A stretch of DNA of 64,000 bases from Deltaproteobacteria bacterium (GCA_018645265.1 JABGOS010000118.1:7855-71854); one strand, 5' to 3'. Positions 27,012 through 61,276 are shown, counted from the stretch's first letter. Notes: generated by a model from the letters alone, not told the origin. Numbers and translations are program-made.

Positions 27012-27107
27012 ATCATCCCTCCTGATCGAGGTGCTATACATCCCTAGCATTGGTTGTGCAATAGTGTATCGAAAATGATTGAAAAGAAAGGCACCCTGTG
27101 GTGTCCT

Positions 27108-27132
27108 CAAAAAGGTGTCGGACACTTTTTGG
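27108..27132. repeat. single copy of the palindromic element (CAAAAAGGTGTCGGACACTTTTTGG) in the hypA/apbE divergent intergenic region
   Basis: Lies 10 nt upstream of the apbE SD GGGGGGAGA. Confidence 0.8.
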
Positions 27133-27142
27133 GGGGAGATGT

Positions 27143-28177
27143 ATGAAACACAAAAAAATCATTGTAATTGGGGTGTTGGCGGTTCTGTGCATAGCGCTGA
27201 TTTGGGCCTTCTTTCCCCGGAGATATGATGGCAGCTTCTATCCGATGGGTGGTATTCCATTTAAAGTCGTCGCCTACGGAAAAAATTTCATTCAGTTCGA
27301 TAGAATTATGGAAGCGGTTGAAAATGATGTGGCCAAGCTTGAGAAGATCTTCAGCAGATATGATAGAACGAGCGAGCTTTCAAAGCTGAACGAAATTGCT
27401 GAAAGGAAGCCAGTTCAGGTAAGCAAAGGGATGCATCGAATGATTGCTCTTTCCAAGAAGTGGTATCGAATGAGTGGTGGCGCGTTTGATCCGAGCGTAG
27501 CTCCACTTGTGAACCTATGGAAGCGGGCTGGTAAATCGAATATCCTACCTAGCGATGATGAGATTGCTGCTCTTCTCAAGAGCGTCGGTATGGATAAAGT
27601 GGATATGCTTGATGGTGACGAGGTCTTTTTCGCCGCGAAGGGAATGAAACTTGATTTTGGTGCAATTGCTAAGGGGTTTATCGTCGACAGATCTGTATCC
27701 TCCGCTTCGGAAGCTGGAAATGAATCTGGTTTGATTGAAGCTGGCGGTGATGCATATATCTTTGTCGAAGATAGTACTAAAATAGGCGTTCAGGACCCGA
27801 CCGACAGTGCGAAGCTGATGGCCACCGTCAGCGTTTCAGCCGGGGCTGTTGTTACTTCCGGGGATTATGAGAGGTATGTAGAAATTGATGGCAAAAAATA
27901 TTCCCATATTGTAGATCCGCGCACCGGTTATCCATCTGATAACGGGGTGATCAGTGTAACTGTTGTCGGTGGTGCTGCTGTCGATGCCGATGCCTTGGCA
28001 ACATCAGTGATGGTCTTGGGTGTCGATGGTGGAATTGGGTTGGTAAGGAAGCTGGCGGATATGCATCTGATAATTGTGGAAAAGAATGCGGATGATTATC
28101 TCGTGCATGTTTCGAAACAACTTTTACCTATCATTGAATGGCACTCGAATTGGTCTGATAAGGTTTCTGAGTTTTAA
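27143..28177 (+). CDS. apbE: FAD:protein FMN transferase (ApbE family)
   Basis: MSGGAFDPSVAPLVNLW, LDFGAIAKGFIVD, TSGDYERYVEIDGKKYSHIVDPRTGYP, and the Mg-site DADALATSVMVLG. N-terminal signal anchor. Confidence 0.85.
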   Translation: MKHKKIIVIGVLAVLCIALIWAFFPRRYDGSFYPMGGIPFKVVAYGKNFIQFDRIMEAVENDVAKLEKIFSRYDRTSELSKLNEIAERKPVQVSKGMHRMIALSKKWYRMSGGAFDPSVAPLVNLWKRAGKSNILPSDDEIAALLKSVGMDKVDMLDGDEVFFAAKGMKLDFGAIAKGFIVDRSVSSASEAGNESGLIEAGGDAYIFVEDSTKIGVQDPTDSAKLMATVSVSAGAVVTSGDYERYVEIDGKKYSHIVDPRTGYPSDNGVISVTVVGGAAVDADALATSVMVLGVDGGIGLVRKLADMHLIIVEKNADDYLVHVSKQLLPIIEWHSNWSDKVSEF

Positions 28178-28187
28178 TTGAAAGAAT

Positions 28188-29438
28188 ATGAAAGAGAATA
28201 GGCGCGTAAAATATATTAGGATTGCATCGTTTAGTTTTCTAGCGTTTTCGGTGATGTTTTCCTATGCGATAGCAAGGCCATCGGCGGAATCGTTATTTCT
28301 GGCGACACATTCCAGCAAAAGTCTTCCGCTGGTATGGCTTATAGTGGCAGCTGCGATGTTGTGTGTGGTTGCCATCTACAATTGGTTTGTCACAAAACAC
28401 GATCTCATTCGCCTTTTTGGATACGCCGCATTCGCCAGCAGCATAACCTTGGTGGGGTTGCTTCTTCTAAAGAGGATGGAAGTATATGGAGTGAATTACG
28501 CCATATATGTCTGGAAGGATATATATGTAGTGGTTCTGGTGGATCTCTTCTATATGTATGCCAATTCCGTATTTCCCATAAAGACAGCTCGGTGGATATA
28601 TGGTTTTTTCGGGGCGTTTGCAGCGGCGGGAAGTATCGTTGGTAATCTGTTGGTAGGTAAGCTCGCAATGGCATATGGAACCGTCGGTTCCTTTTGGTTT
28701 GCCGTTCCTGTATTGGCACTTATTGGATTTTTCTGCCTGCCACTTTCAAAAATCGTTGGAATCGGGAAACCTTTGGAAAAGAAATATAATCATGCCCACA
28801 TCCGTGAAGCGTGGAAGGTTGTGAGGAATAGCTCTTATCTTACACTTATACTCCTTTTGATCTTCGTAGTGCAGATTGCCGTTGTCCTGATAGATTTTGA
28901 GTTCAATGGGGTGGTCGAGAGTGCATTTCCAGATATGGATGTTCGCACCGGAATGATAGGTAAAATTTATGCGATTATTAACAGTGCTACGTTTGTACTG
29001 CACCTCATTACCGGACCGCTATTGAGGTTGGTAACCGTCCCAGGAGCGCTAATCTCCATTCCATTTATTCTGGCACTCAGTGTTGTTACATTTATAGCAT
29101 TTCCTGCATTCATGGTAGTAGCTGTGATGAAAGCGGCGAGTAAAGTTTTTGATTATACGATATTCAAGTCTGCGAAGGAGATTCTGTATATTCCCCTTAC
29201 CTATGAAGAGAAAACTATGGGCAAGTCGATAGTCGACATGCTTTCTTATCGTATTGCGAAGGGCGGGGCATCGCTTTTGCTAATGGGCATTCTTGGATTG
29301 GGGCTGATGAAGATCGTTCCGTGGGTGACACTTGCTCTTATACTGCTTTGGATTGTTATCACGTGGGCGATAGTTAAGAGGTTCAGAAGTAAGGTGGATA
29401 GGTCTCAGGAGATGACATCTGACTTTGTAAATAGGTGA
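28188..29438 (+). CDS. polytopic membrane transporter (MFS-like; N-terminus resembles TLC/ADP-ATP-translocase-type carriers)
   Basis: About 11-12 predicted TM helices. The N-terminal FLAFSVMFSYAIARPSAESLFL resembles the TLC-family start. The subfamily call is weak. Confidence 0.45.
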   Translation: MKENRRVKYIRIASFSFLAFSVMFSYAIARPSAESLFLATHSSKSLPLVWLIVAAAMLCVVAIYNWFVTKHDLIRLFGYAAFASSITLVGLLLLKRMEVYGVNYAIYVWKDIYVVVLVDLFYMYANSVFPIKTARWIYGFFGAFAAAGSIVGNLLVGKLAMAYGTVGSFWFAVPVLALIGFFCLPLSKIVGIGKPLEKKYNHAHIREAWKVVRNSSYLTLILLLIFVVQIAVVLIDFEFNGVVESAFPDMDVRTGMIGKIYAIINSATFVLHLITGPLLRLVTVPGALISIPFILALSVVTFIAFPAFMVVAVMKAASKVFDYTIFKSAKEILYIPLTYEEKTMGKSIVDMLSYRIAKGGASLLLMGILGLGLMKIVPWVTLALILLWIVITWAIVKRFRSKVDRSQEMTSDFVNR

Positions 29439-29551
29439 TCTTTATGTATTAGTTGTGTCTGAAGGGGAGATAATCCGAGCGATATAACTATTGGCAAGGC
29501 CCCAGTATCCTTATAGTATGCGCGAAACAAGCTCCGGGAGTGTTTCTAAGT

Positions 29552-32500
29552 ATGGGTAATGAAAAGGAAATTATTGAGTCGAAGAATGGTAATTATGAGG
29601 TCATCCGCAAGTTGGGTGAAGGTTTTACCGGTGAAGTCTATGTTGTGAACGATCTTACCCGGGGTGAACCGTGCGCGCTGAAGCTTTTAAACCCTGAGGC
29701 TTTTAAGGAGGGACAGCTCACTGCTTTTAAACGTGAGTTCATGTTGCTCTCCGATCTTCACAATCCCCATGTATGTGCTGTCTATGATTTCGGATTTTCC
29801 AGTAACAAGGATCGCTACTTTTTTACGATGGAGGTCGTACAGGGTAAAGATCTCTATAAGTATGTCGAAGGCCTAGCTATCGACGAGATTGAAGAACTCT
29901 TCGTTCAAATCGTGGATGGTCTGGGTGTGATTCATCAGGCAGGTCTCATCCATTACGATATCAAGGGATCCAACATCCTGGTAACCAATACGCCGACAGG
30001 TGGTGTCCTTGCAAAGATCGTCGATTTTGGACTCGCCGCACCCTCGGCAGAGGTTCATGAAAATATAGCCGGAACTGTACGCTACATGAGTCCGGAGATG
30101 ATTCTGCACGATCAGACGATAGATTACAGGAGTGATCTTTATTCGTTGGGTATCGTTTTTTATCGGATGTTGGCCGGTGATTACCCTAGTCAGGGAACAA
30201 ATATGAAAGAGGTTCTTTCCTGGCATGTCAGTCACACGGATCTTGATTCAGCACCCCTCAAGGCGAAGGGTGTGCCTGATTATCTAATCGAGGTGGTTGA
30301 GAATCTTACAAAACCTATTCCCACAGAGAGATTTTCCTCGGCAGCAGTGATAGTTAGGTTTCTGGAGCTTCATTCAGGGAAAAAATATGCAGAAGTGCAG
30401 AGGCAGCTTGTTTCAACGCTGATGGAGGAAGGCCCGCTCGTTGCGAGGGATGGCATTATGCAGACGATACGTCCGATGCTTCATCGTTTGGGAGAGAAAA
30501 AGAAATTTGAAGAGGATGATCACCAGACCTTGGTTGTAAGCGGTCCATCAGGTTCCGGGAAATCGAGAATTCTTAAGGAAGCGAAGTATATAACGCAGCT
30601 GATGGAAGTAAATAGGGTGATAGTGAGTGGCGACACAGAGGGACAGGATCTCGATGCATTTAAAAAATTCATCGGATGTGAGGGGCTGTCAGACGATGAC
30701 GCTACAAAGCATCTACTGGAAAGACAGCCTCTATGTCTAATGGTGGATGATCTTGATAAGTGCAACGGGCAGGTTAGGAACTTTGTGACTGCATTTGTTA
30801 ACACGCTTTATTCGTCCCGCTTTCTTGGAAAAGAAAGCATGGTTTACGTTCTTCTTTCGATGTCGGTCGATGGTCCTAAGGCACCTCTTCCTGTTTCATT
30901 GCATCTTGATGTTGAAAATAGATTTCTCGAACCCTTCAGCGCTGAGGATGTGATCAACTATCTGAGGCTGGCAATCGGTGAATCCAATCCTTCAAATAAA
31001 CAGGTTAAGGATATTTTAAATTTCTCTGGAGGAATTCCGGAGCTCGTTAGAATAGCTATTGCAACATTAGATTCGCCAGGTGGTAAGATTGAAGGTGGTG
31101 CCGATAAGATATTTGCTGAGAAGATAGACAAGCTCGATGATGCCGCGCGGAGGGTCCTTGGAATTTTAGTGTTAGCGGGTAGGCCTATTTCACAACACCA
31201 TCTTATCGTTCTTTCTGGCGTGATTATCGAGAATGCTCTCAGCGAGCTGCTGAAGGATGGGTTTATCACCTTCAACAGGGAAAAAGAAAGCTATGAGGCA
31301 GCATCGGGAGCAGTTGCTTCAGCTGTTCAGGCGGCGCTTGGCGAGGAGGAGGAGAAGGATATGGGCAAATCCCTTCTCGAACATTTCGAAGAGTACTCCC
31401 CTGATGATATCGATGCCATAACGAGGTTTGCGAAGTTGGGAGCAGATCCGGATAAGGTGCCGGGTTATATAATTGCGGCTGCTGAGAAAAAGGATTCCAT
31501 ATCAGACCTTGAGGGTACTTATAAATATTACAAGGATGCTATTGATGTTCTTCAAACTGGCGATGAGAGGCTTCCAAGTATTCATAGAAAACTGGCTAGA
31601 CAGCAGATTTTTATAGGAGAATTGGACGAAGCTATAAAACATATTGAGGAGGCCACCAAGGAGTCGGGTGAAAATAAGGATGATCTTCTGATGAGGAGCT
31701 GGATTGGGCGTATCCGCCATAAACCGGACGAGGCGCTTGAGTATATTCAAAAAGCGATGAAGGTCATGGCTGATGGGGCCGAACAAGTTGAGGTGCTGAA
31801 ACTGATGAATGAAGAGGCACAGTGCTACATCCAGATGGGTCAGCCTGATAAGGCCATTGAAATTTTTACAAAGACTCAGACTGAGGCCGATAATATGGCG
31901 GAGGATCAGAGGAAGCAGGTTGCGAATAATAATTTGGGCTTGGCATTGGCTCTGAAGGATGACTTCGACAATGCTATTGAATTTTATAATAAGAAATTTG
32001 ATTTTTTCTCTGATGATAAGAGGCTTGCGGCATCCATTCTTAGTCAGCTGGGCTACGTCTATCAGAGGGGAAATAAACTTACCGACGCTCTTGAGACTTG
32101 TAAGAAGAGCTGGGAACTTTATTCCGAAGTTGGCGACACCCATAGTTCGATGTCAATCTTGAGCAATCTCGTCTGTATCTGTCAGAGCCTAGCTCGTTTT
32201 ACAGATGCACTTCCATATGTGACGGCAAGTATTGAGCTTGCTTCGAAGGCAGGTTCGGAGAGGGATCTAGCTAACAACTTTTTGAATCTTGGGATGCTAT
32301 ATCTAAACCTGGGTTTGGAGGATGTTGCTGGAAGATACCTTAACGAAGCGGCGCGCATCTTTCAGAAGCTCAAGGATCCTCATATGGAGGGATGGGTTCA
32401 GCTCTCTATGGCTTACAGATACAAACATATTCATCGTTATGACGAGGCACTTGCCTATCTGAATGTTGTTATAAAGAGGGGAGCCGATAAGGGATATGCG

Positions 32501-33187
32501 GATCTCTCCCTGTGGGGCAATTATGAGGCGGCCGATATGCTCGTTGACCTGGGTCAAATAGAGAAGGCTGAAAAGTATCTATCCACCTTGGATGAGGTGT
32601 GGGACGGGGAGGAGAACGTCACCGAGACTACCATCAAGGTGGAGCTGTTGAGATGCAAAATCAGAGTCGGATCCAGAAAAGATGTTGGTGAACCCCTTGA
32701 AAAAAGGCTTCTGGAGTTGGCGGATCTATCGGATAATATGGAACTCAGGGAACTTGTCGGCGAAGTCTATCACACTTTGAGCGAGTACTATGGGATCTCA
32801 GGTGATCAGAAAAAGTCTGCCGAATTTGTTGCCAAGGCGAAAGATATAATCGATGAGATCGCATCCTCTCTTTCAGAGGAGTATCGCGGTTCATTTATGA
32901 AACAGAAATTTAGACAGAAGGTCGCCGAGGACAGCGTGAAGCTTAAGGATGTGATCGGGGAGATTAGGCGGGAGCTCGGTATTCCAGAGAAAATAAAACC
33001 TTCAATCAATGAGCCTTCGATTCGTGATGATACCGCTTTGAATGCGGAGCCAAGCGGAAAAACCGCTGATCTTTCCTCCGCTAATCTCGAGTTGGGGGAG
33101 ACGAGTGCTCTACCGGAATCTGAATCACAAGCATTGAGCAGGGAGATATCTAGAGATTTGAAGAAAAAAAAGGAAGAGGATAAGTAG
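29552..33187 (+). CDS. multidomain Ser/Thr protein kinase - STAND/AAA NTPase - TPR regulator (PknK/MalT-like architecture)
   Basis: Kinase Gly-loop LGEGFTGEVY, VAIK-like ALKLL, catalytic HYDIKGSNILV, DFGLA, SPE. Walker A VVSGPSGSGKSRIL and Walker B LCLMVDDLD. C-terminal TPR-like repeats, roughly 500 aa. Start set at the ATG at 29552, inside the GTG ORF. Confidence 0.85.
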   Translation: MGNEKEIIESKNGNYEVIRKLGEGFTGEVYVVNDLTRGEPCALKLLNPEAFKEGQLTAFKREFMLLSDLHNPHVCAVYDFGFSSNKDRYFFTMEVVQGKDLYKYVEGLAIDEIEELFVQIVDGLGVIHQAGLIHYDIKGSNILVTNTPTGGVLAKIVDFGLAAPSAEVHENIAGTVRYMSPEMILHDQTIDYRSDLYSLGIVFYRMLAGDYPSQGTNMKEVLSWHVSHTDLDSAPLKAKGVPDYLIEVVENLTKPIPTERFSSAAVIVRFLELHSGKKYAEVQRQLVSTLMEEGPLVARDGIMQTIRPMLHRLGEKKKFEEDDHQTLVVSGPSGSGKSRILKEAKYITQLMEVNRVIVSGDTEGQDLDAFKKFIGCEGLSDDDATKHLLERQPLCLMVDDLDKCNGQVRNFVTAFVNTLYSSRFLGKESMVYVLLSMSVDGPKAPLPVSLHLDVENRFLEPFSAEDVINYLRLAIGESNPSNKQVKDILNFSGGIPELVRIAIATLDSPGGKIEGGADKIFAEKIDKLDDAARRVLGILVLAGRPISQHHLIVLSGVIIENALSELLKDGFITFNREKESYEAASGAVASAVQAALGEEEEKDMGKSLLEHFEEYSPDDIDAITRFAKLGADPDKVPGYIIAAAEKKDSISDLEGTYKYYKDAIDVLQTGDERLPSIHRKLARQQIFIGELDEAIKHIEEATKESGENKDDLLMRSWIGRIRHKPDEALEYIQKAMKVMADGAEQVEVLKLMNEEAQCYIQMGQPDKAIEIFTKTQTEADNMAEDQRKQVANNNLGLALALKDDFDNAIEFYNKKFDFFSDDKRLAASILSQLGYVYQRGNKLTDALETCKKSWELYSEVGDTHSSMSILSNLVCICQSLARFTDALPYVTASIELASKAGSERDLANNFLNLGMLYLNLGLEDVAGRYLNEAARIFQKLKDPHMEGWVQLSMAYRYKHIHRYDEALAYLNVVIKRGADKGYADLSLWGNYEAADMLVDLGQIEKAEKYLSTLDEVWDGEENVTETTIKVELLRCKIRVGSRKDVGEPLEKRLLELADLSDNMELRELVGEVYHTLSEYYGISGDQKKSAEFVAKAKDIIDEIASSLSEEYRGSFMKQKFRQKVAEDSVKLKDVIGEIRRELGIPEKIKPSINEPSIRDDTALNAEPSGKTADLSSANLELGETSALPESESQALSREISRDLKKKKEEDK

Positions 33188-33204: not shown

Positions 33205-33720
33205 TCAACTTTCATTATCTAGAGGGTTCACCATCGATATATTGAGTAAGTCCTTCAATCCGGCCTCAAGTCTTTGTGTCTCATTCATTATATATGGACA
33301 TGCGCCGATGAGACATCCTGAATTTGAGGCGTCGTAGATTAGATGTAATCTTCCGAGGAAAGAAAATGCTGTAACGTTATTCTGGTCAGGAATTTTTAGT
33401 ATTCCGCTCTTGGTAGTGTGGCTGACAAGGGTTGTCGAACCATTTGTCTCTCGGCGCCATAACAAGACACCCTTCTTAAAGTATAGCGCATCGGTATCAT
33501 ACACGCACAGATCATCTATAGTTGATTTCCATCTAGGTATTTCAAATTGTGTCCAATTCTGGTTATGAAAATCGCTTGTAATGCCGGTGATCGATTCCTC
33601 ACTTAAATTGACGACAGTTCCTTTCATGAATGGGTGCGCTCTATCGGTGAAGGAACTGCAGTTTGGTTTTAAGTTGAATATGCTGTCCGGCAGTTTTTTT
33701 TGTGTCACACTCTTTGGCAT
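33205..33720 (-). CDS. hypothetical protein
   Basis: 171-aa ORF divergent from the 526-aa gene. No motifs recognised. Confidence 0.4.
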   Translation of the reverse strand: MPKSVTQKKLPDSIFNLKPNCSSFTDRAHPFMKGTVVNLSEESITGITSDFHNQNWTQFEIPRWKSTIDDLCVYDTDALYFKKGVLLWRRETNGSTTLVSHTTKSGILKIPDQNNVTAFSFLGRLHLIYDASNSGCLIGACPYIMNETQRLEAGLKDLLNISMVNPLDNES

Positions 33721-33932
33721 AGTTGTTGTGTCCTCGATGCGTTTATTTGCAGAAAAACGTTATAGTTGCTGTGAATCCCTAAGGCTATTGTAGTGTAATA
33801 TCAAATTGTTACGCTGAGTTCTCTATGGGACTTGGCTGCAGATCAGTCGCAGCTGAGCTTTCCTATTACTATTGAAAAATAATGCAATAAAAACATAAAA
33901 GTATGAACAGGCCTCTTGCAATGAAATAGGCA

Positions 33933-35513
33933 TTGTTATACGACTTATTGACAGGGAGGCATATGGTTAGAGCACTTCAATACAGTTCAGTTCCGAGTAG
34001 CTTTCATATAGCTGATCAGATTCATCCGTATAGATTCTGTCATCCGAATCTTGGTGGCAACCCGTTCTATGTTGCTCTGAGCCAATCGATTCCTACCAAG
34101 AATGATCAGACGGTATTGAATCATCTGCTGGGAGGGCAGGTGGGTCAGGCAGTGGCGGTACCGCTGCAGGATCTTCCACAGGAACTTCCCAGCGGTTTTC
34201 GATATTATGATATCACATCTGCAATACCTCCATACGTTCAGGAGAAACTGGGAACCTCTGAGTATATACCAGGCCCAAATTGTTATCACGCGGTGATGAC
34301 AACCCAATATGGGGATAGGTTTAGGGAGCGGTATGTTCATGATGAGGAGATCGGCTACTATCTGACTCGTGATTTTCAAGTATCAGCTAGAAGGGATCTT
34401 CTTGGTTCTGCTTTGATTTATACGCGGAGTGTTTACGGGTCATCCGGTATGAGTTTTGCTGAAGGGGTTAGCGTAGCGGGTGGCCCAGAGTACGATATCA
34501 AGGATTTTGGACTTACTACATTTGGCATATTCACTATGCAGATGCCAGGGGCATTCAAACCATCAAGAATACCTCGCGCAATAGGTGAATCCGAGGGACA
34601 CGGTGTTGTGAAGAAATCACTTCCTGATCTGAACGATGATGATTTTGTAGGTGATGAACAGCTATTTTCTCTAGCACCGGATGCGACAAGATCAGAGGGG
34701 TGGAAGGTTATTCCGACAGCTGATCCGGGAGTGCATGGGGCGATTATGTTGCTCGGAGGTATGGTATTTCAAAAGGGATGCTTCGGTGATCACTGTGGCT
34801 ATCGCATTGTTCCTGCTGACAAGGGGATGTCGTCGATTGAGATCAAACAGGAACGCTTTGCACCTAGGCGGGAGCCTGAGAATGATGCACACTACAGATA
34901 CACGAGCTACGTTCGTTCCAATAGAGATCCAGTAGAGAGGTTTGGCTTTAACTTGGAACTATCGAACAAGTTAGCGTCCTATGTCACTTTGATGGAGCAC
35001 TATCTTGGAAGGTTTAGAGGGATTAAGGACAAATCTTGGAAGCATTTCAATGAAGCCAGGATTGATCTGCTCAGCGTTGAGAATATGTGGGGCGTTCTGC
35101 GCGATATGGAAAAATTAATGTATGATGGTGAGCCAAGTAAAATGAATGCGTTGCTCAGAATTGATCCAACCATTGCTGAGATGTTTTTGGAACTCAAGAG
35201 TCTTAGATGGCAGTACCAAGTTATGACCGACAAGTACGCTCCCTTTCCGGATAGATGGTCACGTGATAGGGTTAAGCGTGAACTCGCAGAGTTGTATCGT
35301 GATCATTATGTCAATCCGGATAGTGAGATATTCAGGGATGAGGTTGTGGCGCATCTCAAAATCAGGGGGGTAGCTGAGGCATCGTGGAGTGGGGTCATCG
35401 CGGCGGTTGTTGAGAGGGTTAAGACATACGATCCTGTGGAATTTTCATCATCAAACGGTGCCAAAGGAATACCGTTCTCCGATCTTCTGGATGAAATAAT
35501 CGGATCTGGTTAA
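33933..35513 (+). CDS. hypothetical protein with OTU-like Cys motif (YIPGPNCYHAVMT) - possible cysteine peptidase
   Basis: 526 aa. The GxNC(Y/L)xHA motif resembles the OTU/A20 catalytic-Cys context (DGNCLMHA). A downstream His candidate is HGAIMLLGG. Unverified. Confidence 0.45.
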   Translation: MLYDLLTGRHMVRALQYSSVPSSFHIADQIHPYRFCHPNLGGNPFYVALSQSIPTKNDQTVLNHLLGGQVGQAVAVPLQDLPQELPSGFRYYDITSAIPPYVQEKLGTSEYIPGPNCYHAVMTTQYGDRFRERYVHDEEIGYYLTRDFQVSARRDLLGSALIYTRSVYGSSGMSFAEGVSVAGGPEYDIKDFGLTTFGIFTMQMPGAFKPSRIPRAIGESEGHGVVKKSLPDLNDDDFVGDEQLFSLAPDATRSEGWKVIPTADPGVHGAIMLLGGMVFQKGCFGDHCGYRIVPADKGMSSIEIKQERFAPRREPENDAHYRYTSYVRSNRDPVERFGFNLELSNKLASYVTLMEHYLGRFRGIKDKSWKHFNEARIDLLSVENMWGVLRDMEKLMYDGEPSKMNALLRIDPTIAEMFLELKSLRWQYQVMTDKYAPFPDRWSRDRVKRELAELYRDHYVNPDSEIFRDEVVAHLKIRGVAEASWSGVIAAVVERVKTYDPVEFSSSNGAKGIPFSDLLDEIIGSG

Positions 35514-35539: not shown

Positions 35540-35580
35540 AAAAAGGTGTCCGACACTAAAAAGGTGTCCGACACCTTTTG
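35540..35580. repeat. two abutting copies of the palindromic element (AAAAAGGTGTCCGACAC TAAAAAGGTGTCCGACACCTTTTG)
   Basis: 35540-35557 and 35558-35580. They sit between the 526-aa gene stop and the ECF sigma gene. Confidence 0.8.
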
Positions 35581-35690
35581 TTGTATTATTAACAATATAT
35601 ATCAGTTAGTTAGAGCGGCGCATGTTTTATTTCTCTTTATTGTAGACCAAAACGGCTGTGCATGCGTCTCAAGATGTGGAAGATGAGGCC

Positions 35691-36230
35691 ATGGATCTTA
35701 TAGATAATGCAATCAAGGGTAGCAACGTTGCGTGGAATGAAATCATCAGACGATATCAGAGGAGGGTTTTTGCTGTGGCACTTTCGGTGATGCGAAATTC
35801 TGATGATGCCGATGAAATTACGCAGGAGGTCTTTGTGAAGCTCTATACTCATATGGAGAGTTTAAAAAATAGAGATGGTGTTGGAAGTTGGCTCACCAAA
35901 ACCGCTTACAATATGTCTTGTGATAAATTGAGGTATAGAAAGATTAGGGGTTGGTTGTCATCCTCTGCAAAATCCGATTATGATGTTGCCGATGATCATT
36001 CGGTAAGCGAACGAATCCAAAAGGCCGAACTTGCCGAGACAATAGGAAAATGGATCGATGCGAAACTTTCGAGTAAGGAGAGGGCGGTCGTACAACTCAG
36101 AATTGGCGAGGAGATGAGCTTTCTAGAAATAGCGGAGGCGCTAGGTCTTTCTCAATCGAGCGTTAAGACTTACTATTATAGAGCTGTTGATAAGATGAAG
36201 ATGTTGTCTGGCAAGGGAGGGTTGTTATGA
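35691..36230 (+). CDS. ECF-type RNA polymerase sigma factor (sigma-70 family)
   Basis: Region 2 (YQRRVFAVALSVMRNSDDADEITQEVFVKLY) and region 4 HTH (SFLEIAEALGLSQSSVKTYYYRAVDKMK). ATG at 35691 within the GTG-started ORF. Confidence 0.85.
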   Translation: MDLIDNAIKGSNVAWNEIIRRYQRRVFAVALSVMRNSDDADEITQEVFVKLYTHMESLKNRDGVGSWLTKTAYNMSCDKLRYRKIRGWLSSSAKSDYDVADDHSVSERIQKAELAETIGKWIDAKLSSKERAVVQLRIGEEMSFLEIAEALGLSQSSVKTYYYRAVDKMKMLSGKGGLL

Positions 36231-36583
36231 AGAATGGTGATAACCTCAAGAAGCTTGCAGTGAACGTGGATAGACTTGAAGTTGATTGGAATGCGCAGCG
36301 CGTTCAAATCAACGATAGGATATCGAGGGGGGGGAAGCCCGTCATAAATTTATCATGGGTGTTAGGTGCATTGTCAGTTGCAGCGATGATTGTAGCTGCG
36401 GTAGTGATCTTTACGTTTTCGGCACCGCATGTTGAGGATGGAAGTGATCTGTTCACAGATATTGATATAGAAGAGTACGATATGCCGTATGGTCTTTACG
36501 TATTAAATGGTTTTACTGAAGAAGCTAGCAGTTTTGATGAAACCGCAAATTTTATACTAGCAGAGGAAGGAGATACGTTATGA
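36227..36583 (+). CDS. putative single-pass membrane anti-sigma factor
   Basis: 4-nt overlap with the sigma gene. Cytoplasmic N-terminus, one TM helix (WVLGALSVAAMIVAAVVIF), short periplasmic tail. Assignment is by gene context. Confidence 0.45.
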   Translation: MKNGDNLKKLAVNVDRLEVDWNAQRVQINDRISRGGKPVINLSWVLGALSVAAMIVAAVVIFTFSAPHVEDGSDLFTDIDIEEYDMPYGLYVLNGFTEEASSFDETANFILAEEGDTL

Positions 36584-37071
36584 AGAAATTATCAATTGTG
36601 GTGGTAGTTGTATTAGTTGCTCTGATATTCAGCGCTGATGCCTTTGCGCGAGGTGGTGAAAGAGGTGAAATGGGTGGAGGGGGTCATCGTGGTAAGTGGT
36701 GGAAGGATGCAGAGGTGGTCAAAACACTGAACCTTACTGAGAAACAGGTCGAGGGTATCAATAAAATTTCAAGTGATGAAAGAAGGGGGCAGATAAAAGT
36801 GCGTTCGGATCTCGAAATCCTTAGGATCGATATGGATGATGCTATGGAGGCGAAGGAGTTGGATTCAGGTAAGGTGAACAAGTTGATTGATAAATATGCA
36901 TCGCTCAAAGCCCAGCATGCAAAGGGTAGAATGAAGTCGTTGCTCGAGATTAGGAAATTATTAACACAGGAACAATATCTTAAGCTGAAGGCTATGCGCC
37001 CTGAGAGGGGTGGTAAGAAAGGTGCTAAGCGTCAAGATAAGGGTGGTAAAGAGAAGGGCAGGGGGAAATAG
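36580..37071 (+). CDS. Spy/CpxP-like periplasmic stress protein (two LTxxQ motifs)
   Basis: Signal peptide, LNLTEKQ and LLTQEQYLKLKAM motifs, helical and Lys-rich. 4-nt overlap with the upstream gene. Confidence 0.65.
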   Translation: MKKLSIVVVVVLVALIFSADAFARGGERGEMGGGGHRGKWWKDAEVVKTLNLTEKQVEGINKISSDERRGQIKVRSDLEILRIDMDDAMEAKELDSGKVNKLIDKYASLKAQHAKGRMKSLLEIRKLLTQEQYLKLKAMRPERGGKKGAKRQDKGGKEKGRGK

Positions 37072-37094
37072 TGCGGATGAAAATGTAAAAACAA

Positions 37095-37126
37095 AGCCCA
37101 TCACATTAGTGATGGGCTTCTTTATG
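37095..37126. terminator. bidirectional rho-independent terminator between convergent genes
   Basis: aaaaacaa-agcccatcac-atta-gtgatgggct-tctttat. Confidence 0.55.
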
Positions 37127-37144
37127 TATACGGGTGTTTTTCAA

Positions 37145-38740
37145 TCAGCGAAAAATCTTTTTGCCGATCAGACCAGCCATCATCCGATAGGTGGCTGCAG
37201 CATCGGCTGCCCCTGGGATTGTAGCTTGTGTATTCTCATGATATTTTGCTCTGCGGAGAAAGTACTCCTTCTTAACCTCCACAGAACCGAGGTTTTCTGG
37301 GTCAGCACCAAACCTGATGTGAATTGTCCCATCATGTGTGATGTGCACGTGAAATTGTGATGGGTCGAGTGTGATTCTTCCATCCATTTCGTACTCCGAC
37401 ATTGTCAGTAGGCCATTCCTTATCTGTTCAGAGAAATATAAATGGGTGCTTTGAGCTCTCACGCCGAGTTCATTCGAATTGTCTCCAAAGCCTTTGAAGT
37501 TCTGATCCCAAGACGGTACGATTACGCCGTTTTTCGCCTCCGTACAGCAGTATTTGAACATGCTTCTTACAAAGGGTGCGCTGAAAAAATGTTCAAATCG
37601 TTTGAGATGATCTGGGAGGCGTTTTAAATCGCTCTCATCAAGGTGATAGAGTAGATATTGAGCTCCATTAGTTCCCAAAAGTTTCATGTTTTCGATGACC
37701 ATTCGAGTATATCTAGAGCTCATCAGGAATTCTTCTGCACTTGAGAACATCTGGTACCAAAACCAGTCATCGCCACCGTAGGATGTCATATACTCGGGAT
37801 TGAATTTGAATCCTTCGGGATCTTTTAAGTATGCTGCACCATATTTATCCCGGATCTCTCCTATTAGCTCCATTTGGTAGTCGACATTAGTCTGCTTGGA
37901 GAGGAAATATAGCATCAACGATCTTTCCTCAGCCATGAAGATGACTTCCAGCTTGCGATCGATGTATCGGTCGACATCCGCCCTAAATAATCTCCCAAAC
38001 GGTTTTACACTATAGTAAATTCTTTTACCGCGGGCTAAATACGCTTCTACCCCTCTGTTTAGGGACTCAGAGCCATGCGGCCATCCGGAAGTTGTATACA
38101 CCAATGGTTGTTCAGACCATGCGAAACTTTTATCTACATCAGCGTAGTGTCTCTCGATGCCCTCCCTATCCACGACTCTGTAGTAGGTTGGATCAGACCC
38201 GTCGAACGCTATCAATCTGGATGAAGGATATAGAAGGTCTAGGTGCGCCTCCTTCTTAAGTCTCCTCATAGTTTGTGACAGTGCATCGACCCTGTCCCAG
38301 GGCATTGAATCCTTTGGCTTGAATTTAGGCGCCGATCTTCCGCAGGCGAGACATTGAGTAGGACATCCGTTTTGGAGGTCAATTATGGCGACTGTATTCC
38401 TTAGAAAAGCTAGTTCATGAATGTTGAGGCCGACTAAAGATTGTACCTCTCCAGTAGAGGAGGAATGGATGATATCATAAGCATGTTTCCAATCGACTCC
38501 GTCATAATTGAGATCAGGCAATCTATAACCACCACCCCAGAATGTTGAATAGTCCGGTGCGCCAAAGATAAGAGGATGCGGAATTGCTGGAGATGGGGCA
38601 GGGACCACCCTTCCTAGGATCCCTTGTCCGGTATGACTGGCCGCTGTTTGGGCGGAGGGATTGGTCATGGATCCGCTACCTGCCGAAAGCAGAGTGGTTA
38701 AATTTGCTGTGCCGAGGCTTTGTAAGATTCGTGTAACCAT
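37145..38740 (-). CDS. putative radical-SAM enzyme with Ser/Thr/Pro/Ala-rich N-terminal segment
   Basis: Single CxxxCxxC cluster (NGCPTQCLACG) about 125 aa from the N-terminus, followed by the Gly-rich FDGSDP. No second Cys cluster. The first 60 residues are low-complexity. Confidence 0.4.
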   Translation of the reverse strand: MVTRILQSLGTANLTTLLSAGSGSMTNPSAQTAASHTGQGILGRVVPAPSPAIPHPLIFGAPDYSTFWGGGYRLPDLNYDGVDWKHAYDIIHSSSTGEVQSLVGLNIHELAFLRNTVAIIDLQNGCPTQCLACGRSAPKFKPKDSMPWDRVDALSQTMRRLKKEAHLDLLYPSSRLIAFDGSDPTYYRVVDREGIERHYADVDKSFAWSEQPLVYTTSGWPHGSESLNRGVEAYLARGKRIYYSVKPFGRLFRADVDRYIDRKLEVIFMAEERSLMLYFLSKQTNVDYQMELIGEIRDKYGAAYLKDPEGFKFNPEYMTSYGGDDWFWYQMFSSAEEFLMSSRYTRMVIENMKLLGTNGAQYLLYHLDESDLKRLPDHLKRFEHFFSAPFVRSMFKYCCTEAKNGVIVPSWDQNFKGFGDNSNELGVRAQSTHLYFSEQIRNGLLTMSEYEMDGRITLDPSQFHVHITHDGTIHIRFGADPENLGSVEVKKEYFLRRAKYHENTQATIPGAADAAATYRMMAGLIGKKIFR

Positions 38741-38863
38741 TATTTTTATATAGAGTTTGTGCCTTAAAGTGGAACTATCTCGAACGATCTACTATCGGCG
38801 TGATGTTGATAATGTTGCTAGATAAATGGGTGGTCCTAGCTTGTTGATAAAATTGAAATAATA

Positions 38864-39961
38864 TTAAAAGAGGGACTCTACATCGAAAGGGTCAGGGCCA
38901 TTTCTTTCGGCGCTTATGTAAATGTGACGTGAAAAACCGCCAGTGGTGAGGGATAGATCGATATGGAATCCAGGTAGTGTCCTCTTTAAGCTATATGTTA
39001 TGGACATATCTCCAAATTCCATTAAGCCAGTACCGGAAAATAGGGGTCGCTTTGATGAGGTGACGAGATCAAAGATCTTTCCGCTGTCAGTAATCATGAA
39101 AGCCATTCCACCAATCGCAAGGCTATTTATTTCCATTTCTATTACTGCATGTTGTTTTCTGCTGTGAAATGCAGCTCCGAAGACATCGAATAGGAGGTCC
39201 GTTTCTGGTAGCGATGTTAAACCGCCTGCGTCCGCTATGATTTGATCCTTGTAGGCACCTGCATTTTCCGGTTTGGCTGGATGAAGCGATATTTGTGTGA
39301 TTTCGATGTCGTCGCCGAAATGATCTTTTAACCCATTTGCCAGTGCTCCCTCTCCATCACCGATAAGTAAAATTTTTGCAGGAGAGCCATCAGCTTTCTT
39401 TTCACGTACTTTGCTTATGGCATCGATAGGATTTGCGGAACATCCATCCGCCAGTAGCCGAAGTATTTGCTTATATGATCTTCCAAATTTATAATCACCG
39501 TGCTTACTGCGAAGCGCGTTTTCCATGCGCAGTGCATGTAAGGTTTGTTCCCTGATTTTAGGTTCAAGTTTGCCCATTCTCAAAAGTTCTTCAAATGCCC
39601 ATCGTTCCAAAGGAATATTGCCTTTATCATCTTCTATCTCCACAAGATCGGGAGGTGTGGTGGGTGTTCTTGGTGTTGGTTTGAATCTGGCTGCGCATCT
39701 TGCTAGGGCACCGGTGCATTTAGATGTTAGAGAACCAAGTGCGCCGAATAGTGTTCCGGGCGGAGTGGAGGATGGTTGCATGACAGCTGTGGCTTGGGAG
39801 TGCACAGCAGCATCACTCCAAAATCTAGAGGCATAGAGTGCTGCCAGTGAGGATGTGCCGAATCCAGGAGAGATGAGGTATGGTCTTGCAGTGACCTGGT
39901 GCAGTAAGAAACCTGTATCAGGCCCGGGTGTTGTGATTGGCCGGCTTGTCTGAAATGTCAT
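38864..39961 (-). CDS. hypothetical protein with Pro/Thr/Ser-rich N-terminus and Rossmann-like GxGxG segment (possible SAM-dependent methyltransferase)
   Basis: KILLIGDGEGALANGL followed by an acidic beta-strand end (DDIEITQISL). Weak motif-level call only. Confidence 0.35.
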   Translation of the reverse strand: MTFQTSRPITTPGPDTGFLLHQVTARPYLISPGFGTSSLAALYASRFWSDAAVHSQATAVMQPSSTPPGTLFGALGSLTSKCTGALARCAARFKPTPRTPTTPPDLVEIEDDKGNIPLERWAFEELLRMGKLEPKIREQTLHALRMENALRSKHGDYKFGRSYKQILRLLADGCSANPIDAISKVREKKADGSPAKILLIGDGEGALANGLKDHFGDDIEITQISLHPAKPENAGAYKDQIIADAGGLTSLPETDLLFDVFGAAFHSRKQHAVIEMEINSLAIGGMAFMITDSGKIFDLVTSSKRPLFSGTGLMEFGDMSITYSLKRTLPGFHIDLSLTTGGFSRHIYISAERNGPDPFDVESLF

Positions 39962-40237
39962 CCCTGTTCCTCATGCCTATTATCGCCAGTAAAATCAGAT
40001 AGTTGCGCTATAAATAATCAAAACCATTTTTATGGTATTTCATTAATAATATCAAGGCTTTATAGATATTATGCGAAGGCAGCGTGCTTATCGATCAAAT
40101 ATAAATCTTAGGCCGTATGAGTTTTTGAAGTTGTCATGCCGTATACTGCAGTACACAGAAATATGACCTGTAGGGTAACATTTTTCTGCAATATTGGATA
40201 ATCAGTATGATTAACCGTTAAGAGAGGAGGCTCTTCG

Positions 40238-40714
40238 ATGTATTCTACACATGGTATTTTGCCAGCAGGAATTCCAGTAGGAATGAGTGTGCCGGGATGT
40301 CAGGTAGCTTCACTAGTATCGACCGAGGCTGGAGGGTTGCCTGTGGTTTTTGATCAAATTCGCAGCAGTTGTGCTGCCGGGCCTTCAGGTTCTCTGCCTA
40401 CTCAAAGGAGTTTTGTTTTCTGGAGTGCTGGGGAGCCTGCCAGAAAAGATTTAATTCTTAGGCCGCGCATAGACTGCAATAGATTGGTAGGCTTCACACT
40501 GTGGCAGATAGATAGAGTCTATGGGGCGTCGGATCGTATAGGTAGGGTTAACCCTAGTAGGAAGTGGAACGGTTTAATGCATCAGGTTGATGTTAATAAG
40601 CTATGCTCTAGCCCGATAAGGGGTGCTCTGCTGGCCGCTGGTCTTCAGTTGATCGATGGCGCGTATCATCATTGGGACGAACCTCTAGGAAAGTATCTTC
40701 CTCTGTATCTTTAA
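40238..40714 (+). CDS. hypothetical Pro/Gly/Ser-rich small protein
   Basis: 158-aa ORF divergent from the radical-SAM islet. No motifs. Confidence 0.35.
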   Translation: MYSTHGILPAGIPVGMSVPGCQVASLVSTEAGGLPVVFDQIRSSCAAGPSGSLPTQRSFVFWSAGEPARKDLILRPRIDCNRLVGFTLWQIDRVYGASDRIGRVNPSRKWNGLMHQVDVNKLCSSPIRGALLAAGLQLIDGAYHHWDEPLGKYLPLYL

Positions 40715-56139: not shown

Positions 56140-56143
56140 TTTG

Positions 56144-56227
56144 TGCGAGAGAGGGGACTCGAACCCCTACAGCCTTGCGGCCACAAGAACCTGAATCTTG
56201 CGTGTCTGCCAATTCCACCACTCTCGC
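56144..56227 (-). tRNA. tRNA-Leu (anticodon CAG)
   Basis: Minus strand: GCGAGAG acceptor stem, anticodon stem-loop CAAGA-TTCAGGT-TCTTG, long variable arm GTGGCCGCAAGGCTGTAG, T-arm GGGGTTCGAGTCCCC. CCA is not encoded. Confidence 0.8.
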
Positions 56228-58805: not shown

Positions 58806-59375
58806 CTAAATGATACTTTCAATGGAGAATCTTTTTGTAACGTCGCTATCAAACTTCTCACAATAGACGTGATTAATCGCTGCTAGGGTAGTTAAAACTA
58901 GGTCGGCATTTAGGAGGTCGTTTGCCGGCAATGCTGCTTTCGATATATCCCCGTCGAAGTTGAGATCACAGCACATGAGTACGCTTCCTGAGCCGTTCTT
59001 CGTTATGGATGAATCAAGTTTGTGTAGACTGTCAGCTGTGTCAGGGCCGATCATAAGAGGGAGACCCCAAAGGCGGCAAACTAAAGGCCTGATTTTGTAT
59101 ATGCTGCAGAGACCGTTAGCGTTTAAAAACTTACATCTAGAACTGTCATCTGGTGGCGAGGTTAGTTTGTAGCTAGGTGAATTTGTTTGTAAGTGGTCGA
59201 ACTCAATCTTCCATACCGTTATTCCTGTGATACAACACTTGCTGCATCCACTGTGGCATGTGATCTTCTCATTATGTTTCGCTTTTAGATTGTTGGTGAA
59301 ATCATCGACTTTCTTTAGCAGGTCTAGATAATCCCGAAACATATTAAAAGCCCGCCGTGCGGATGAATCTTCCAC
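58806..59375 (-). CDS. YkgJ/UPF0153-family putative Fe-S or Zn-binding protein
   Basis: CHSGCSKCC and NGLCSIYKIRPLVCR motifs. The start is uncertain: GTG at 59375 or ATG at 59342. Confidence 0.55.
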   Translation of the reverse strand: MEDSSARRAFNMFRDYLDLLKKVDDFTNNLKAKHNEKITCHSGCSKCCITGITVWKIEFDHLQTNSPSYKLTSPPDDSSRCKFLNANGLCSIYKIRPLVCRLWGLPLMIGPDTADSLHKLDSSITKNGSGSVLMCCDLNFDGDISKAALPANDLLNADLVLTTLAAINHVYCEKFDSDVTKRFSIESII

Positions 59376-60294
59376 TGTTGTTGACGATCAGTCCTTTGGC
59401 ATATTTGGATAACAATTTTTTGCCTTTTTCTGGTCCCACTACGAATACTGCTTCAGCCAACCCATTTGCGAGGGCTGCCTCTCTCATTACTGCTACAACG
59501 CCTTTGCAGGGGGTGTTTATTGCACTCTTGGATCTTGGATCAATTATCGATGTTCCTCTGTATTTGCTGGCACTGACGGCGGCGACTCCGGTATTCATGA
59601 CCGTAAGATTTAATGCATGTTTTGCAAATGTACCTGAATCATCCTGTACTTGAATTCTCCAGGGCCCGCTCATTCCGTTTCCAATACCTCTGAATATGCT
59701 ACCGACCTTGACCATAGCGTTGTGCATATTTGCATGATAAACATAGTGGACGATTACGTCGGCTAGAAAGCCATCGATTATTTTATCGAAGTTGACTCTC
59801 ATCCCAGCCGTCTTGAGTTCTACGGTGTAGTTGGATTTATCTATAGCGATATCTCTGTAACTGCCCGGTCCTTGGTAATATGTAATATCGAAGGCGCCAT
59901 CAGTCCAACCGGAAACTTTTTTAGCGGCTTGAAAGGCGGCTAAGACTTCAGAGGATACTGTAACAGGACCCTTGCCTGCATTGGCGTTTACTCTCGAAAC
60001 CTCACTTTGGGCGTTTGCCCAGTTTAAGTTGGTATGGACTGTATTTATTTTGGATAGGACGACGTCGAAGAGCTTTTCCATGGTCTTTTTATCTTTCGAC
60101 CATCCAACGATAATTATGGAGACAGGAATACGACCGCCGATTGTAGCGTGTCTTTGGTACTGCTCGATACCTCCACCTATAGCGGTTCGCGTAGTGGAGA
60201 TGAGTATGAGCAGGGATAGAAGGGTAGAAGCGAAGACTTTATAGGCCTGAAGCCTCCTCGCGCCGTTTTTGTTTGAGATCATTTGGTCCCCCAC
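59344..60294 (-). CDS. ApbE-family paralog 1 (secreted; Mg-site motif degenerate)
   Basis: WTDGAFDITYY, NFDKIIDGFLADVIV, IIDPRSKS, AEAVFVVGPEKGKKLL. It lacks the D-A-x-x-T of the canonical ADALSTA site (it has ALANGLAEA). Confidence 0.6.
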   Translation of the reverse strand: MGDQMISNKNGARRLQAYKVFASTLLSLLILISTTRTAIGGGIEQYQRHATIGGRIPVSIIIVGWSKDKKTMEKLFDVVLSKINTVHTNLNWANAQSEVSRVNANAGKGPVTVSSEVLAAFQAAKKVSGWTDGAFDITYYQGPGSYRDIAIDKSNYTVELKTAGMRVNFDKIIDGFLADVIVHYVYHANMHNAMVKVGSIFRGIGNGMSGPWRIQVQDDSGTFAKHALNLTVMNTGVAAVSASKYRGTSIIDPRSKSAINTPCKGVVAVMREAALANGLAEAVFVVGPEKGKKLLSKYAKGLIVNNSGRFIRTAGF

Positions 60295-61276
60295 TGGCTT
60301 TGCCGTAGACCGGCCAGCGACTTTCTTTGGTCAAAGAGCTTGTGTTTAGGTCTTTGGATGCAACGATCTGACCTTGCTGATCTACCATAATTCCCTTGAT
60401 GGCATCATTTCTATCCACGAACTTGATGGCACCCTTTGATCCGATGGCGTAAGCGGCCAGGCCAAAGGCCGTAGCAGTTGTAGCGTCATTGGCCAATATC
60501 GTTATGCTTTTCATCATAGGATCTCCGACAGGATTCCTGGTTTTTCCATCTATCAGGTTTCTTCCAAGACCTGTCGGGGTTATCGTCGCTGCACCTACGT
60601 TTCTAATGTTATAGTTGAAGGCTCGGTATGCATACTTTGAGTGTTGAGCGTTTCCACCAAAGCCTATCTGAATGTTCCACGGTGTAAAAATGTTGTGTCC
60701 TCTATTTCGACTGATTGGTCCTACGTTCACCATCGCATTGTTAAAACCGGCTTTTGCGATTTCATTCAGGGCTATGTCCACATAATAACCCTTGGAAATT
60801 TTGCTGAGGTCCAACTTCATGCCGGAGCTTTTAAATGAAATTGTTAAGTTTTCTCTGTCGAGGGAAATGCGTCTCCAATCACGTTTCGAGAATGCATTGC
60901 TTTGGGAGGGTGCCGCTATATCAAAAAAACCTTTTGTCTGAGCTGAGAGGGTAGTTGCGCTCTTGACCATGTAGAAAACATACGAAGGAAGTCGAAGCGC
61001 CTGGCCTTTTTGAAGGTTGTTAATCTGAGTTGCAAGCCCACCCCCACCAAAAAGTTGACCATCTATTCTGACTATAACTGAAAGCGCAGATGAGAGGATT
61101 TGTTCGGCCTGTTGTTTACTCTCCTCTGGGGCAACCACCGTCATGTGGACAGGTGTACCGTCCGTAAGTTGCCCTTGGGTCGTAAACTGCCTTCCCGCTG
61201 CATTTGCGTTAACCGCTAAGATGGTAAGTACTGTTATGGATAGTGCGACAAATTTGATTTTTTTGAACATGGTCAA
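60239..61276 (-). CDS. ApbE-family paralog 2 (secreted)
   Basis: Signal peptide. KGFFDIAAP, DLSKISKGYYVD, LIDGKTRNP, ANDATTATAFGLAAYAIG. Confidence 0.65.
   Translation of the reverse strand: MTMFKKIKFVALSITVLTILAVNANAAGRQFTTQGQLTDGTPVHMTVVAPEESKQQAEQILSSALSVIVRIDGQLFGGGGLATQINNLQKGQALRLPSYVFYMVKSATTLSAQTKGFFDIAAPSQSNAFSKRDWRRISLDRENLTISFKSSGMKLDLSKISKGYYVDIALNEIAKAGFNNAMVNVGPISRNRGHNIFTPWNIQIGFGGNAQHSKYAYRAFNYNIRNVGAATITPTGLGRNLIDGKTRNPVGDPMMKSITILANDATTATAFGLAAYAIGSKGAIKFVDRNDAIKGIMVDQQGQIVASKDLNTSSLTKESRWPVYGKASGGPNDLKQKRREEASGL

Follow-up and report, generated by a model that had tools for sequence, protein, structure and literature searches.

Three adjacent genes in the genome of an uncultured bacterium appear to be genuine, lineage-restricted accessory genes in a slot of variable gene content, and one of them probably encodes a remote relative of the radical S-adenosylmethionine (SAM) enzymes. 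The genes lie at positions 37145-40714 of a 64,000-nucleotide stretch of DNA (GCA_018645265.1, JABGOS010000118.1:7855-71854), which was analysed as a whole and is referred to here as the window. NCBI labels the host Deltaproteobacteria, and its closest relative is labelled Myxococcales. We lean towards an account in which all three genes are real, one product represents a rare branch of the radical-SAM superfamily, the genes belong to a tailoring set, and the N-terminal extensions of their products are tag-like. The features on which this account turns are the following, with sizes in amino acids (aa) for each open reading frame (ORF).

37145-38740, minus strand: 531-aa ORF, probably an intact representative of a rare and unnamed family of radical-SAM-like proteins
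38342-38365, minus strand: CPTQCLAC (C126-x3-C130-x2-C133), putative [4Fe-4S]-binding triad
38189-38200, minus strand: GSDP (G181-S-D-P184), family motif [GS][SG][DE]P after predicted strand beta-2
38501-38740, minus strand: uncharged S/T/P/G/A-rich extension, codons 1-80 of the 531-aa ORF, predicted to be disordered
38864-39961, minus strand: 365-aa ORF (NCBI locus tag HN337_07905), a lineage-restricted two-part protein
39647-39961, minus strand: S/T/P/G/A-rich N-terminal extension, codons 1-105 of the 365-aa ORF, translated and constrained
39347-39370, minus strand: LLIGDGEG (L198-G205), GxGxG-like, in a predicted beta-alpha-beta unit
40238-40714, plus strand: 158-aa orphan ORF, divergent from the 365-aa and 531-aa genes

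A preliminary description of this DNA had placed three ORFs at these positions, and they are indeed found there. Gene calls by the Joint Genome Institute (JGI) for the same contig (221 kb, sample 3300072015) include all three, and the 365-aa protein is entered at NCBI as HN337_07905 in the 'Deltaproteobacteria bacterium' metagenome-assembled genome (MAG).

A rare radical-SAM-like family

The 531-aa protein belongs to a small and highly divergent family. An exhaustive phmmer/HMMER search of 1.84 billion cluster representatives recovered 41 relatives at E <= 0.001, 29 of them at E <= 1e-10. The best relative is 35% identical, and the common core corresponds to query residues ~100-265. In a word-indexed search of 5.8 billion proteins the 531-aa protein matched only itself, the family profile likewise returned only self-hits, and genome and metagenome scans added nothing beyond a contig described below (L002). 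The family alignment, which comprises 37 sequences, is too divergent for deriving search patterns. All members are metagenome-derived. The only named ones are from DPANN archaea: a single Candidatus Woesearchaeota MAG holds two, and a third belongs to a Candidatus Nanoarchaeia MAG. Other members lie on contigs with bacterial-type genes. A literature search on radical SAM together with Woesearchaeota found nothing relevant. The two Woesearchaeota members are paralogs within the one MAG (P0014 and P0019; ACP5N1_01750 and ACP5N1_03915). A second pair of paralogs, P0017 and P0026, are both on contigs of 168,959 bp, so they probably share one contig.

The defining feature of the family is a cysteine triad. 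A Cx3Cx2C cluster without the usual aromatic residue before its last Cys had been noticed earlier as GCPTQCLAC; it occupies residues 125-133, with Ala before the last Cys. C126, C130 and C133 are invariant in 37/37 aligned members, and Q123, G125, G219 and W220 are at least 90% conserved. There is no further invariant Cys in the family, and the only others of the window protein, C397 and C398, are not conserved. The earlier remark that an auxiliary cluster is absent was correct: the C-terminal auxiliary iron-sulfur (Fe-S) cysteines of SPASM/twitch enzymes are missing throughout the 37-member alignment and, as there is no second conserved Cys cluster, the 531-aa protein is not a SPASM/twitch enzyme. 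The triad itself is certainly not coincidental.

The second motif is the Gly-rich FDGSDP that the preliminary description had also picked out downstream of the cluster. It lies at residues 179-184 and corresponds to a family motif, [GS][SG][DE]P, which follows the second predicted beta-strand. S182, D183 and P184 are conserved in 24-32 of the 37 members, and in P0002, the closest homolog, the corresponding residues read GGEP outright. GSDP is placed like the 'GGE' motif of radical-SAM enzymes, to which it may be functionally equivalent. Of 56 positions conserved across the family, the window protein retains 47 (members range from 28 to 54), from which it follows that this copy is intact rather than degenerate. 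It is probably an intact member of a rare, unnamed family of radical-SAM-like enzymes.

Profile comparisons point in the same direction. The Cys motif of family members aligns to the start of the Pfam Radical_SAM profile (PF04055), which is matched at E < 0.1 by 11/37 members (best E = 5.2e-6). In three members the matches span profile positions 1-122 of 166, well beyond the Cys motif. The commonest weak NCBIfam match is TIGR04517, the PoyD-type radical-SAM epimerases of ribosomally synthesised and post-translationally modified peptides (RiPPs), again in 11/37 members (best E = 2.1e-5), and the other isolated weak NCBIfam matches are radical-SAM families too. For the window protein, TIGR04517 gives E = 0.15 over residues 116-141, around the cluster-binding loop.

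AlphaFold2, run on the family alignment, gave a mean predicted local distance difference test score (pLDDT) of 83.4 and a predicted template modelling score of 0.80. The model is confident from residue ~80, and residues 1-78 are disordered (pLDDT < 50). From residue 117 strands and helices alternate in a pattern reminiscent of the beta/alpha core of PF04055 proteins, and the invariant Cx3Cx2C follows directly after the first predicted strand. The model differs from PF04055 proteins in a helical insertion of ~100 residues (residues ~250-355) between predicted strands 4 and 5, in a beta-rich, family-specific C-terminal domain, and in the additional disordered N-terminus of ~80 residues in the window protein.

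Several results weigh against this relationship. The window protein itself has no Pfam or NCBIfam match, and every family member falls below the PF04055 gathering cut-off (best score 27.2 bits vs 29.5). Profile searches against Protein Data Bank (PDB) sequences gave no match, either with the whole family or with those members that come nearest to canonical radical-SAM enzymes. Where such enzymes usually have an aromatic residue before the last Cys, this family has A/G/I/T/H. In a different interpretation, the Cys triad would bind a metal for structural or redox purposes without any role in SAM chemistry, the alpha/beta fold would be a different one, and the Radical_SAM matches would be driven by the motif alone. 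Consistent with that interpretation, in addition to the scores below threshold and the missing aromatic residue, Foldseek found no significant neighbour of the model in the PDB, and hhalign aligned the family with one genuine Radical_SAM protein over just the 16-residue Cys motif. However, the best Pfam matches extend 115-120 profile positions past the motif in three members, and the GGE-like motif, with the GGEP of P0002, stands at the expected distance after the next strand. By chance, 11/37 proteins would practically never match one shared model out of 24,736. Radical-SAM enzymes also head the Foldseek ranking, with MiaB and SkfB at the top and anSME further down (E 0.24-1.8, not significant), interspersed with TIM-barrel enzymes of the old-yellow-enzyme type. 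A metal site unrelated to SAM is therefore unlikely, and remote homology to radical-SAM enzymes, which supports the original guess, is the best reading of the 531-aa protein and one that we hold with fairly good confidence. Together with the ~40 metagenomic relatives, it defines a radical-SAM-like family outside all curated models. Characterising this family would extend the chemical repertoire of a superfamily already noted for yielding novel reactions.

As a radical-SAM enzyme, the protein would hold a [4Fe-4S] cluster through C126, C130 and C133 in the loop after strand beta-1, and G181-S-D-P after beta-2 would act as the GGE motif that binds SAM. The enzyme would then generate a 5'-deoxyadenosyl radical to modify a substrate. 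It has no auxiliary cluster and, given that family members share no consistent partner gene, would act on its own. Gene neighbourhoods of family members vary from contig to contig, which means that there is neither an obligate partner nor a recurring small ORF.

Two neighbourhoods deserve separate mention. On contig L014 (5048-8035), P0010 divergently adjoins an operon of an ArsR-type regulator, a cysteine desulfurase (IscS) and NifU/IscU. This neighbour fits an Fe-S protein weakly, as a single occurrence. On contig L006, a 47-aa ORF (2764-2907) overlaps the end of the P0003 gene (1625-2767) and repeats its first 13 codons, MKHKLS[V/I]TMDEET, which suggests that the N-terminus of P0003 arose from local duplication or recombination. 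None of the small ORFs beside P0003 is precursor-like.

The 365-aa protein and the N-terminal extensions

The 365-aa protein is lineage-restricted. A single homolog was found, P0043 (352 aa, 55% identity), on a 4.3-kb contig (L002) of an 'uncultured Myxococcales bacterium' MAG, and genome and metagenome scans with this pair returned only the same contig. The protein has no match in Pfam, NCBIfam (E <= 1) or PADLOC, and a profile search of the pair against PDB sequences was likewise without a match. The protein had been described as Rossmann-like and perhaps a methyltransferase. The first part of that description is plausible, and the second is unproven. LLIGDGEG, which lies in the C-terminal part, is invariant between the two homologs and is followed by a predicted helix and strand, resembles the motif I/post-I region of class I SAM methyltransferases. 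In an hhalign comparison with a canonical class I methyltransferase encoded on contig L004, LLIGDGEG fell on motif I (41% identity over 32 columns), with a probability of 1.4%. Unlike those enzymes, however, the protein matches no methyltransferase model, and the post-I position that closes beta-2, where those enzymes would have an acidic residue, is Ser in both homologs. An AlphaFold2 model built from two sequences is unusable (pLDDT 38.6), and only the beta-alpha-beta unit at residues 195-225 reaches pLDDT 60-72. Homology to the L004 methyltransferase, or to the product of the gene upstream of P0002, was sought and none was detected.

The three proteins are alike in their N-termini. Composition was scored as STPGAQN minus DEKR over the first 60 residues of 56 window ORFs. 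The claim that all three ORFs begin with Ser/Thr/Pro/Gly-rich segments was clearly borne out, since they rank 1st, 2nd and 3rd (0.62, 0.50 and 0.50 vs a median of 0.17, standard deviation 0.15). By our own arithmetic, the chance that the top three would be three adjacent genes is ~54/27720 = 0.002. In the 531-aa protein the extension has STPGA = 0.53 and DEKR = 0.07, and most of its homologs begin at about query residue 100, without any such segment. Extensions of the same kind, S/T/P/G/A-rich and ~100 residues long, are present on two GT1 glycosyltransferases encoded beside relatives of these genes, on L002 and L004. Despite the orthology of these two GT1s, no similarity between their extensions is detectable.

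In the 365-aa protein the extension can be compared directly with a homolog. Residues 1-105 are 47% identical to P0043, with a ratio of nonsynonymous to synonymous substitution rates (dN/dS) of ~0.32, as compared with ~0.10 for the C-terminal domain; dS is saturated and the ratios are therefore rough. The ATG and an upstream GAGG..ACAGGG are kept in the relative (start context 'GAGG..ACAGGGATGACA'). Conserved sequence, conserved ATG, conserved ribosome-binding site (RBS) and dN/dS ~0.3 together imply that this low-complexity segment is translated and constrained. A 103-aa antisense ORF (39525-39836, plus strand) lies inside the extension-coding part of the gene and has a codon score of 0.074, vs -0.007 for the sense frame over that segment. 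Because the sense protein is conserved in the relative, the antisense ORF is regarded as a shadow ORF of a GC-rich low-complexity region.

The extensions have composition and disorder in common, not sequence. By-eye motifs, 'GGLxxVFD' and 'GTSxLxAxYA', did not withstand comparison with shuffled sequences (five-way best motif z = 0.5-1.4), and pairwise local similarity was not significant after 21 tests. The extensions, at 80-105 residues, would be translated, disordered, fast-evolving and lineage-specific add-ons. Since they occur on unrelated catalytic domains, they would most likely serve as a tag for localisation, export or docking rather than in catalysis. A role as such a tag fits the data, as do merely lineage-typical disordered tails. 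Two points count against a tag: there is no common sequence motif, and no secretion-system, shell or chaperone genes were seen in the 64-kb window. Disordered extensions on three unrelated neighbouring enzyme types nonetheless provide a testable case of a possible targeting tag, and nothing here overturns current knowledge.

A bolder interpretation is that a bacterium living as a predator or in association with a host exports or injects the three proteins and the tagged GT1 as effectors, directed by a type III-like, composition-coded signal. N-terminal signals of the type III kind are composition-coded, and keep their composition but not their sequence. The window extensions resemble them in being disordered, Ser/Thr/Pro-rich and poorly charged on otherwise unrelated proteins, and in keeping composition but not sequence even between orthologs. 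They are found on fast-evolving, lineage-restricted enzymes at one locus, have been added to a family that normally lacks them, and belong to genes with the low codon-model scores of accessory genes. A eukaryote-like Ser/Thr kinase with tetratricopeptide repeats (TPR) and a match to a fragment of a TLC-type transporter are encoded nearby. However, the window contains no secretion-system gene, the extensions exceed a minimal signal several-fold in length, and the extension of the 365-aa protein is under sequence constraint. The small neighbouring ORFs are not acidic and chaperone-like, the 158-aa product having a net positive charge. Fe-S enzymes are poor candidates for unfolded export, and the putative radical-SAM enzyme would be one; no paper was found that links radical-SAM enzymes with secreted effectors. 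Delivery as effectors is thus quite unlikely. A common composition-coded tag for export or targeting, on a set of fast-evolving enzymes (radical-SAM-like, Rossmann-like and GT1) that this Myxococcota-like bacterium delivers to another compartment or cell, is likewise improbable. If true, it would be the first case of a radical-SAM-type enzyme used as a delivered effector.

A variable slot and a possible, loosely linked gene set

The locus between the Rnf operon and the module for an extracytoplasmic function (ECF) sigma factor is a slot variable in gene content. Its borders and spacers are as follows.

35658-36230, 36227-36583 and 36580-37071, plus strand: ECF sigma, anti-sigma and LTXXQ/Spy-like genes, respectively; context, outside the three-gene region
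37093-37120, both strands: bidirectional intrinsic-terminator-like hairpin with a 12-bp stem and 6 G-C pairs
38741-38863: 123-bp spacer from the 365-aa to the 531-aa gene, with no terminator-like site in a promoter/terminator scan and, on the strand of the two genes, no credible small ORF
39962-40237: 276-bp divergent intergenic region, carrying the 16-nt element TAACATTTTTCTGCAA at 40176-40191

The ECF-sigma/anti-sigma/Spy module had been recognised from the start, and its assignment is confirmed by Pfam matches to Sigma70_r2/r4, LTXXQ and Metal_resist. The bidirectional terminator that had been proposed as a boundary is also present, as the hairpin at 37093-37120 between the convergent LTXXQ (Spy-like) and 531-aa genes. 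The Rnf operon forms the other flank of the three-gene region.

On L002, a GT1 gene (520 aa) is followed in the same orientation by the 352-aa gene, and then, after 56 bp and in the opposite orientation, by the LTXXQ, anti-sigma and ECF sigma genes. These 56 bp are all that stands where the window has the 531-aa gene. The contig has no counterpart or remnant of the 531-aa ORF and no counterpart of the 158-aa ORF; the GT1 gene, in turn, is missing from the window. Identity between the window and L002 is 66-77% for the flanking ECF/LTXXQ module and 55% for the 365-aa protein. The comparison with relatives called for at the outset therefore revealed a difference in gene content, arisen by gain or by loss.

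A third contig connects these genes further. On L004, a methyltransferase gene, the radical-SAM-like P0005, a GT1 gene and a GNAT gene follow one another in one orientation. The catalytic part of this GT1 (4646-6322) is 54% identical to that of the GT1 of L002 (312-1874), and genome and metagenome scans with the GT1 pair found only the L002 contig already known. Each pair of the three genes is thus adjacent on one contig: the 365-like and radical-SAM-like genes in the window, the GT1 and 365-like genes on L002, and the radical-SAM-like and GT1 genes on L004. Elsewhere, P0039 is divergent from a sugar cluster of RmlD, NeuB, FkbM and GT2 genes (L016), and GT9 and GT2 genes lie a few kb from a family member on L009; the proximity of several members to sugar-modifying genes is a weak lead. 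This triangle has one observation per edge and most family contexts are without sugar genes, both of which speak against a functional link, so that the case for a loosely linked tailoring set of radical-SAM-like, 365-like and GT1 genes is moderate at best. The radical-SAM-like enzyme, the Rossmann-like 365-aa protein and the GT1 would probably form one such set, with a glycoconjugate a likelier target than a ribosomal peptide.

The preliminary description had instead considered a horizontally acquired cassette, in which a radical-SAM enzyme and a methyltransferase jointly modify a RiPP or a cofactor. The weak TIGR04517 matches would agree with this, as would the canonical methyltransferase gene that precedes the family member on L004 and the common orientation of the 365-aa and 531-aa genes, which no terminator separates. 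However, the TIGR04517 matches are local and far under the 325-bit cut-off, and the family has neither SPASM/twitch auxiliary cysteines nor a conserved RiPP-type neighbourhood. No plausible precursor-peptide ORF is present in the 123-bp or the 276-bp spacer, nor is there one beside P0003 on L006. The 365-aa protein is not demonstrably a methyltransferase, and its relative on L002 occurs without a radical-SAM-like gene, so the genes are not a fixed cassette and the proposed pairing is not upheld.

Nor does the region have a compositional or mobility signature of transfer. It had been described as a compositionally distinct islet of higher guanine-plus-cytosine (GC) content. In 500-nt windows, however, GC is 0.42-0.50 within the region vs 0.39-0.49 in the flanks, and the three ORFs have a gene GC of 0.464-0.486, as compared with 0.457 +/- 0.016 for 40 Pfam-supported window genes. 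By tetranucleotide distance, 37001-40500 does not stand out from the window as a whole (z = -0.24), and the profile of GC at third codon positions (GC3) is likewise without a shift. A compositional island was ruled out on these three profiles. The sole GC-richer stretches are the extension-coding segments (0.50-0.56), owing to their Pro, Ala, Gly, Ser and Thr codons. Codon usage, on the other hand, is atypical: the codon-model score of the three ORFs is 0.07-0.13 per codon vs 0.247 +/- 0.072, ~2 standard deviations low. Low scores are common to the other orphan ORFs of the window, and the annotated frame is by far the best of six for all three ORFs. No flanking direct repeats were detected around the region, the only tRNA gene in the window (56143-56227) does not mark it, and no integrase was found among the window ORFs scanned. 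The region is not a compositionally foreign island, recent horizontal acquisition is not borne out, and an acquired RiPP or cofactor cassette is a very unlikely explanation for the three genes.

Start sites, the orphan ORF and surrounding features

The least probable alternative, which had been raised as mis-called starts, is that the low-complexity N-termini are annotation artefacts and that the true starts lie downstream, for example at a TTG (Leu74) of the 531-aa ORF: although most homologs of this protein lack the segment and the codon-model scores of the extensions are near zero, it is rejected for the 365-aa ORF by the conserved sequence, ATG, RBS and dN/dS ~0.3, and is unlikely for the 531-aa ORF. 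For the latter, possible internal starts are Met25, Val45 and TTG74. The JGI gene call prefers Met25 (507 aa), and TTG74 is preceded by GGTGGTGG, whereas ATG1 has no Shine-Dalgarno-like motif. Such a motif is present in just 17/38 trusted genes, and its absence at ATG1 is therefore weak evidence. A run of ~73 open codons upstream of Leu74 has a chance probability of ~3%, and the in-frame codon score of the extension beats those of the five other frames.

The 158-aa ORF probably represents a genuine orphan gene. Its GGAGG ribosome-binding site is strong, its frame is the best of six (score 0.069 vs -0.44), a terminator-like site lies downstream, and JGI also calls it as a gene. The encoded protein is P/G/S-rich in its first 60 residues and has no match in Pfam, NCBIfam or PADLOC. 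That its support comes down to frame statistics and the RBS counts against the assignment. PADLOC gave no defence-system match for any of the three ORFs.

A second divergent pair of orphan ORFs lies beyond the ECF-sigma module, at 33205-33720 (minus strand, 171 aa) and 33933-35513 (plus strand, 526 aa; 516 aa in the JGI call). Neither has a match in Pfam, NCBIfam or PADLOC. The N-terminus of the 526-aa protein is also poorly charged, ranking 8/56 on the composition scale used above. The 16-nt element TAAC[G/A]TTTTTCTGCAA occurs exactly twice in the window, at 33747-33762 (minus strand) and 40176-40191 (plus strand), the two copies differing at one R position. It lies upstream of the 33205-33720 ORF (by ~27 nt) and of the 158-aa ORF (by ~46 nt), with the same orientation relative to each, and 'ATAGGCAT' is found just ahead of where each divergent partner gene starts (33933 and 39961). 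The element may be a regulatory site common to both pairs of orphan genes on either side of the ECF-sigma module; because these two sites themselves defined the pattern, its statistics are circular. No convincing ECF-type promoter motifs in common with the upstream region of the sigma gene were seen, and no riboswitches or other RNA families were detected at 33-41 kb.

The wider window encodes Hyp hydrogenase maturation proteins and a NiFe hydrogenase. In addition to the Rnf operon, it contains three paralogs of the ApbE family of flavin transferases (27098-28177, 59344-60294 and 60239-61276). A 416-aa protein (28188-29438, plus strand) matches the TLC ATP/ADP-transporter profile over only the final ~90 profile positions (E = 5e-18). 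After it comes a eukaryote-like Ser/Thr kinase of 1215 aa that carries TPR repeats (29540-33187, plus strand). The TLC-type match, which is partial, and the kinase hint at a host- or prey-associated lifestyle. Finally, the interval that separates the 526-aa ORF from the ECF sigma gene (~35540-35582) contains 'AAAAAGGTGTCCGACAC' as a tandem repeat, and with its second unit a perfect hairpin is formed, AAAAGGTGTC-C-GACACCTTTT, which is terminator-like with a partial duplication.

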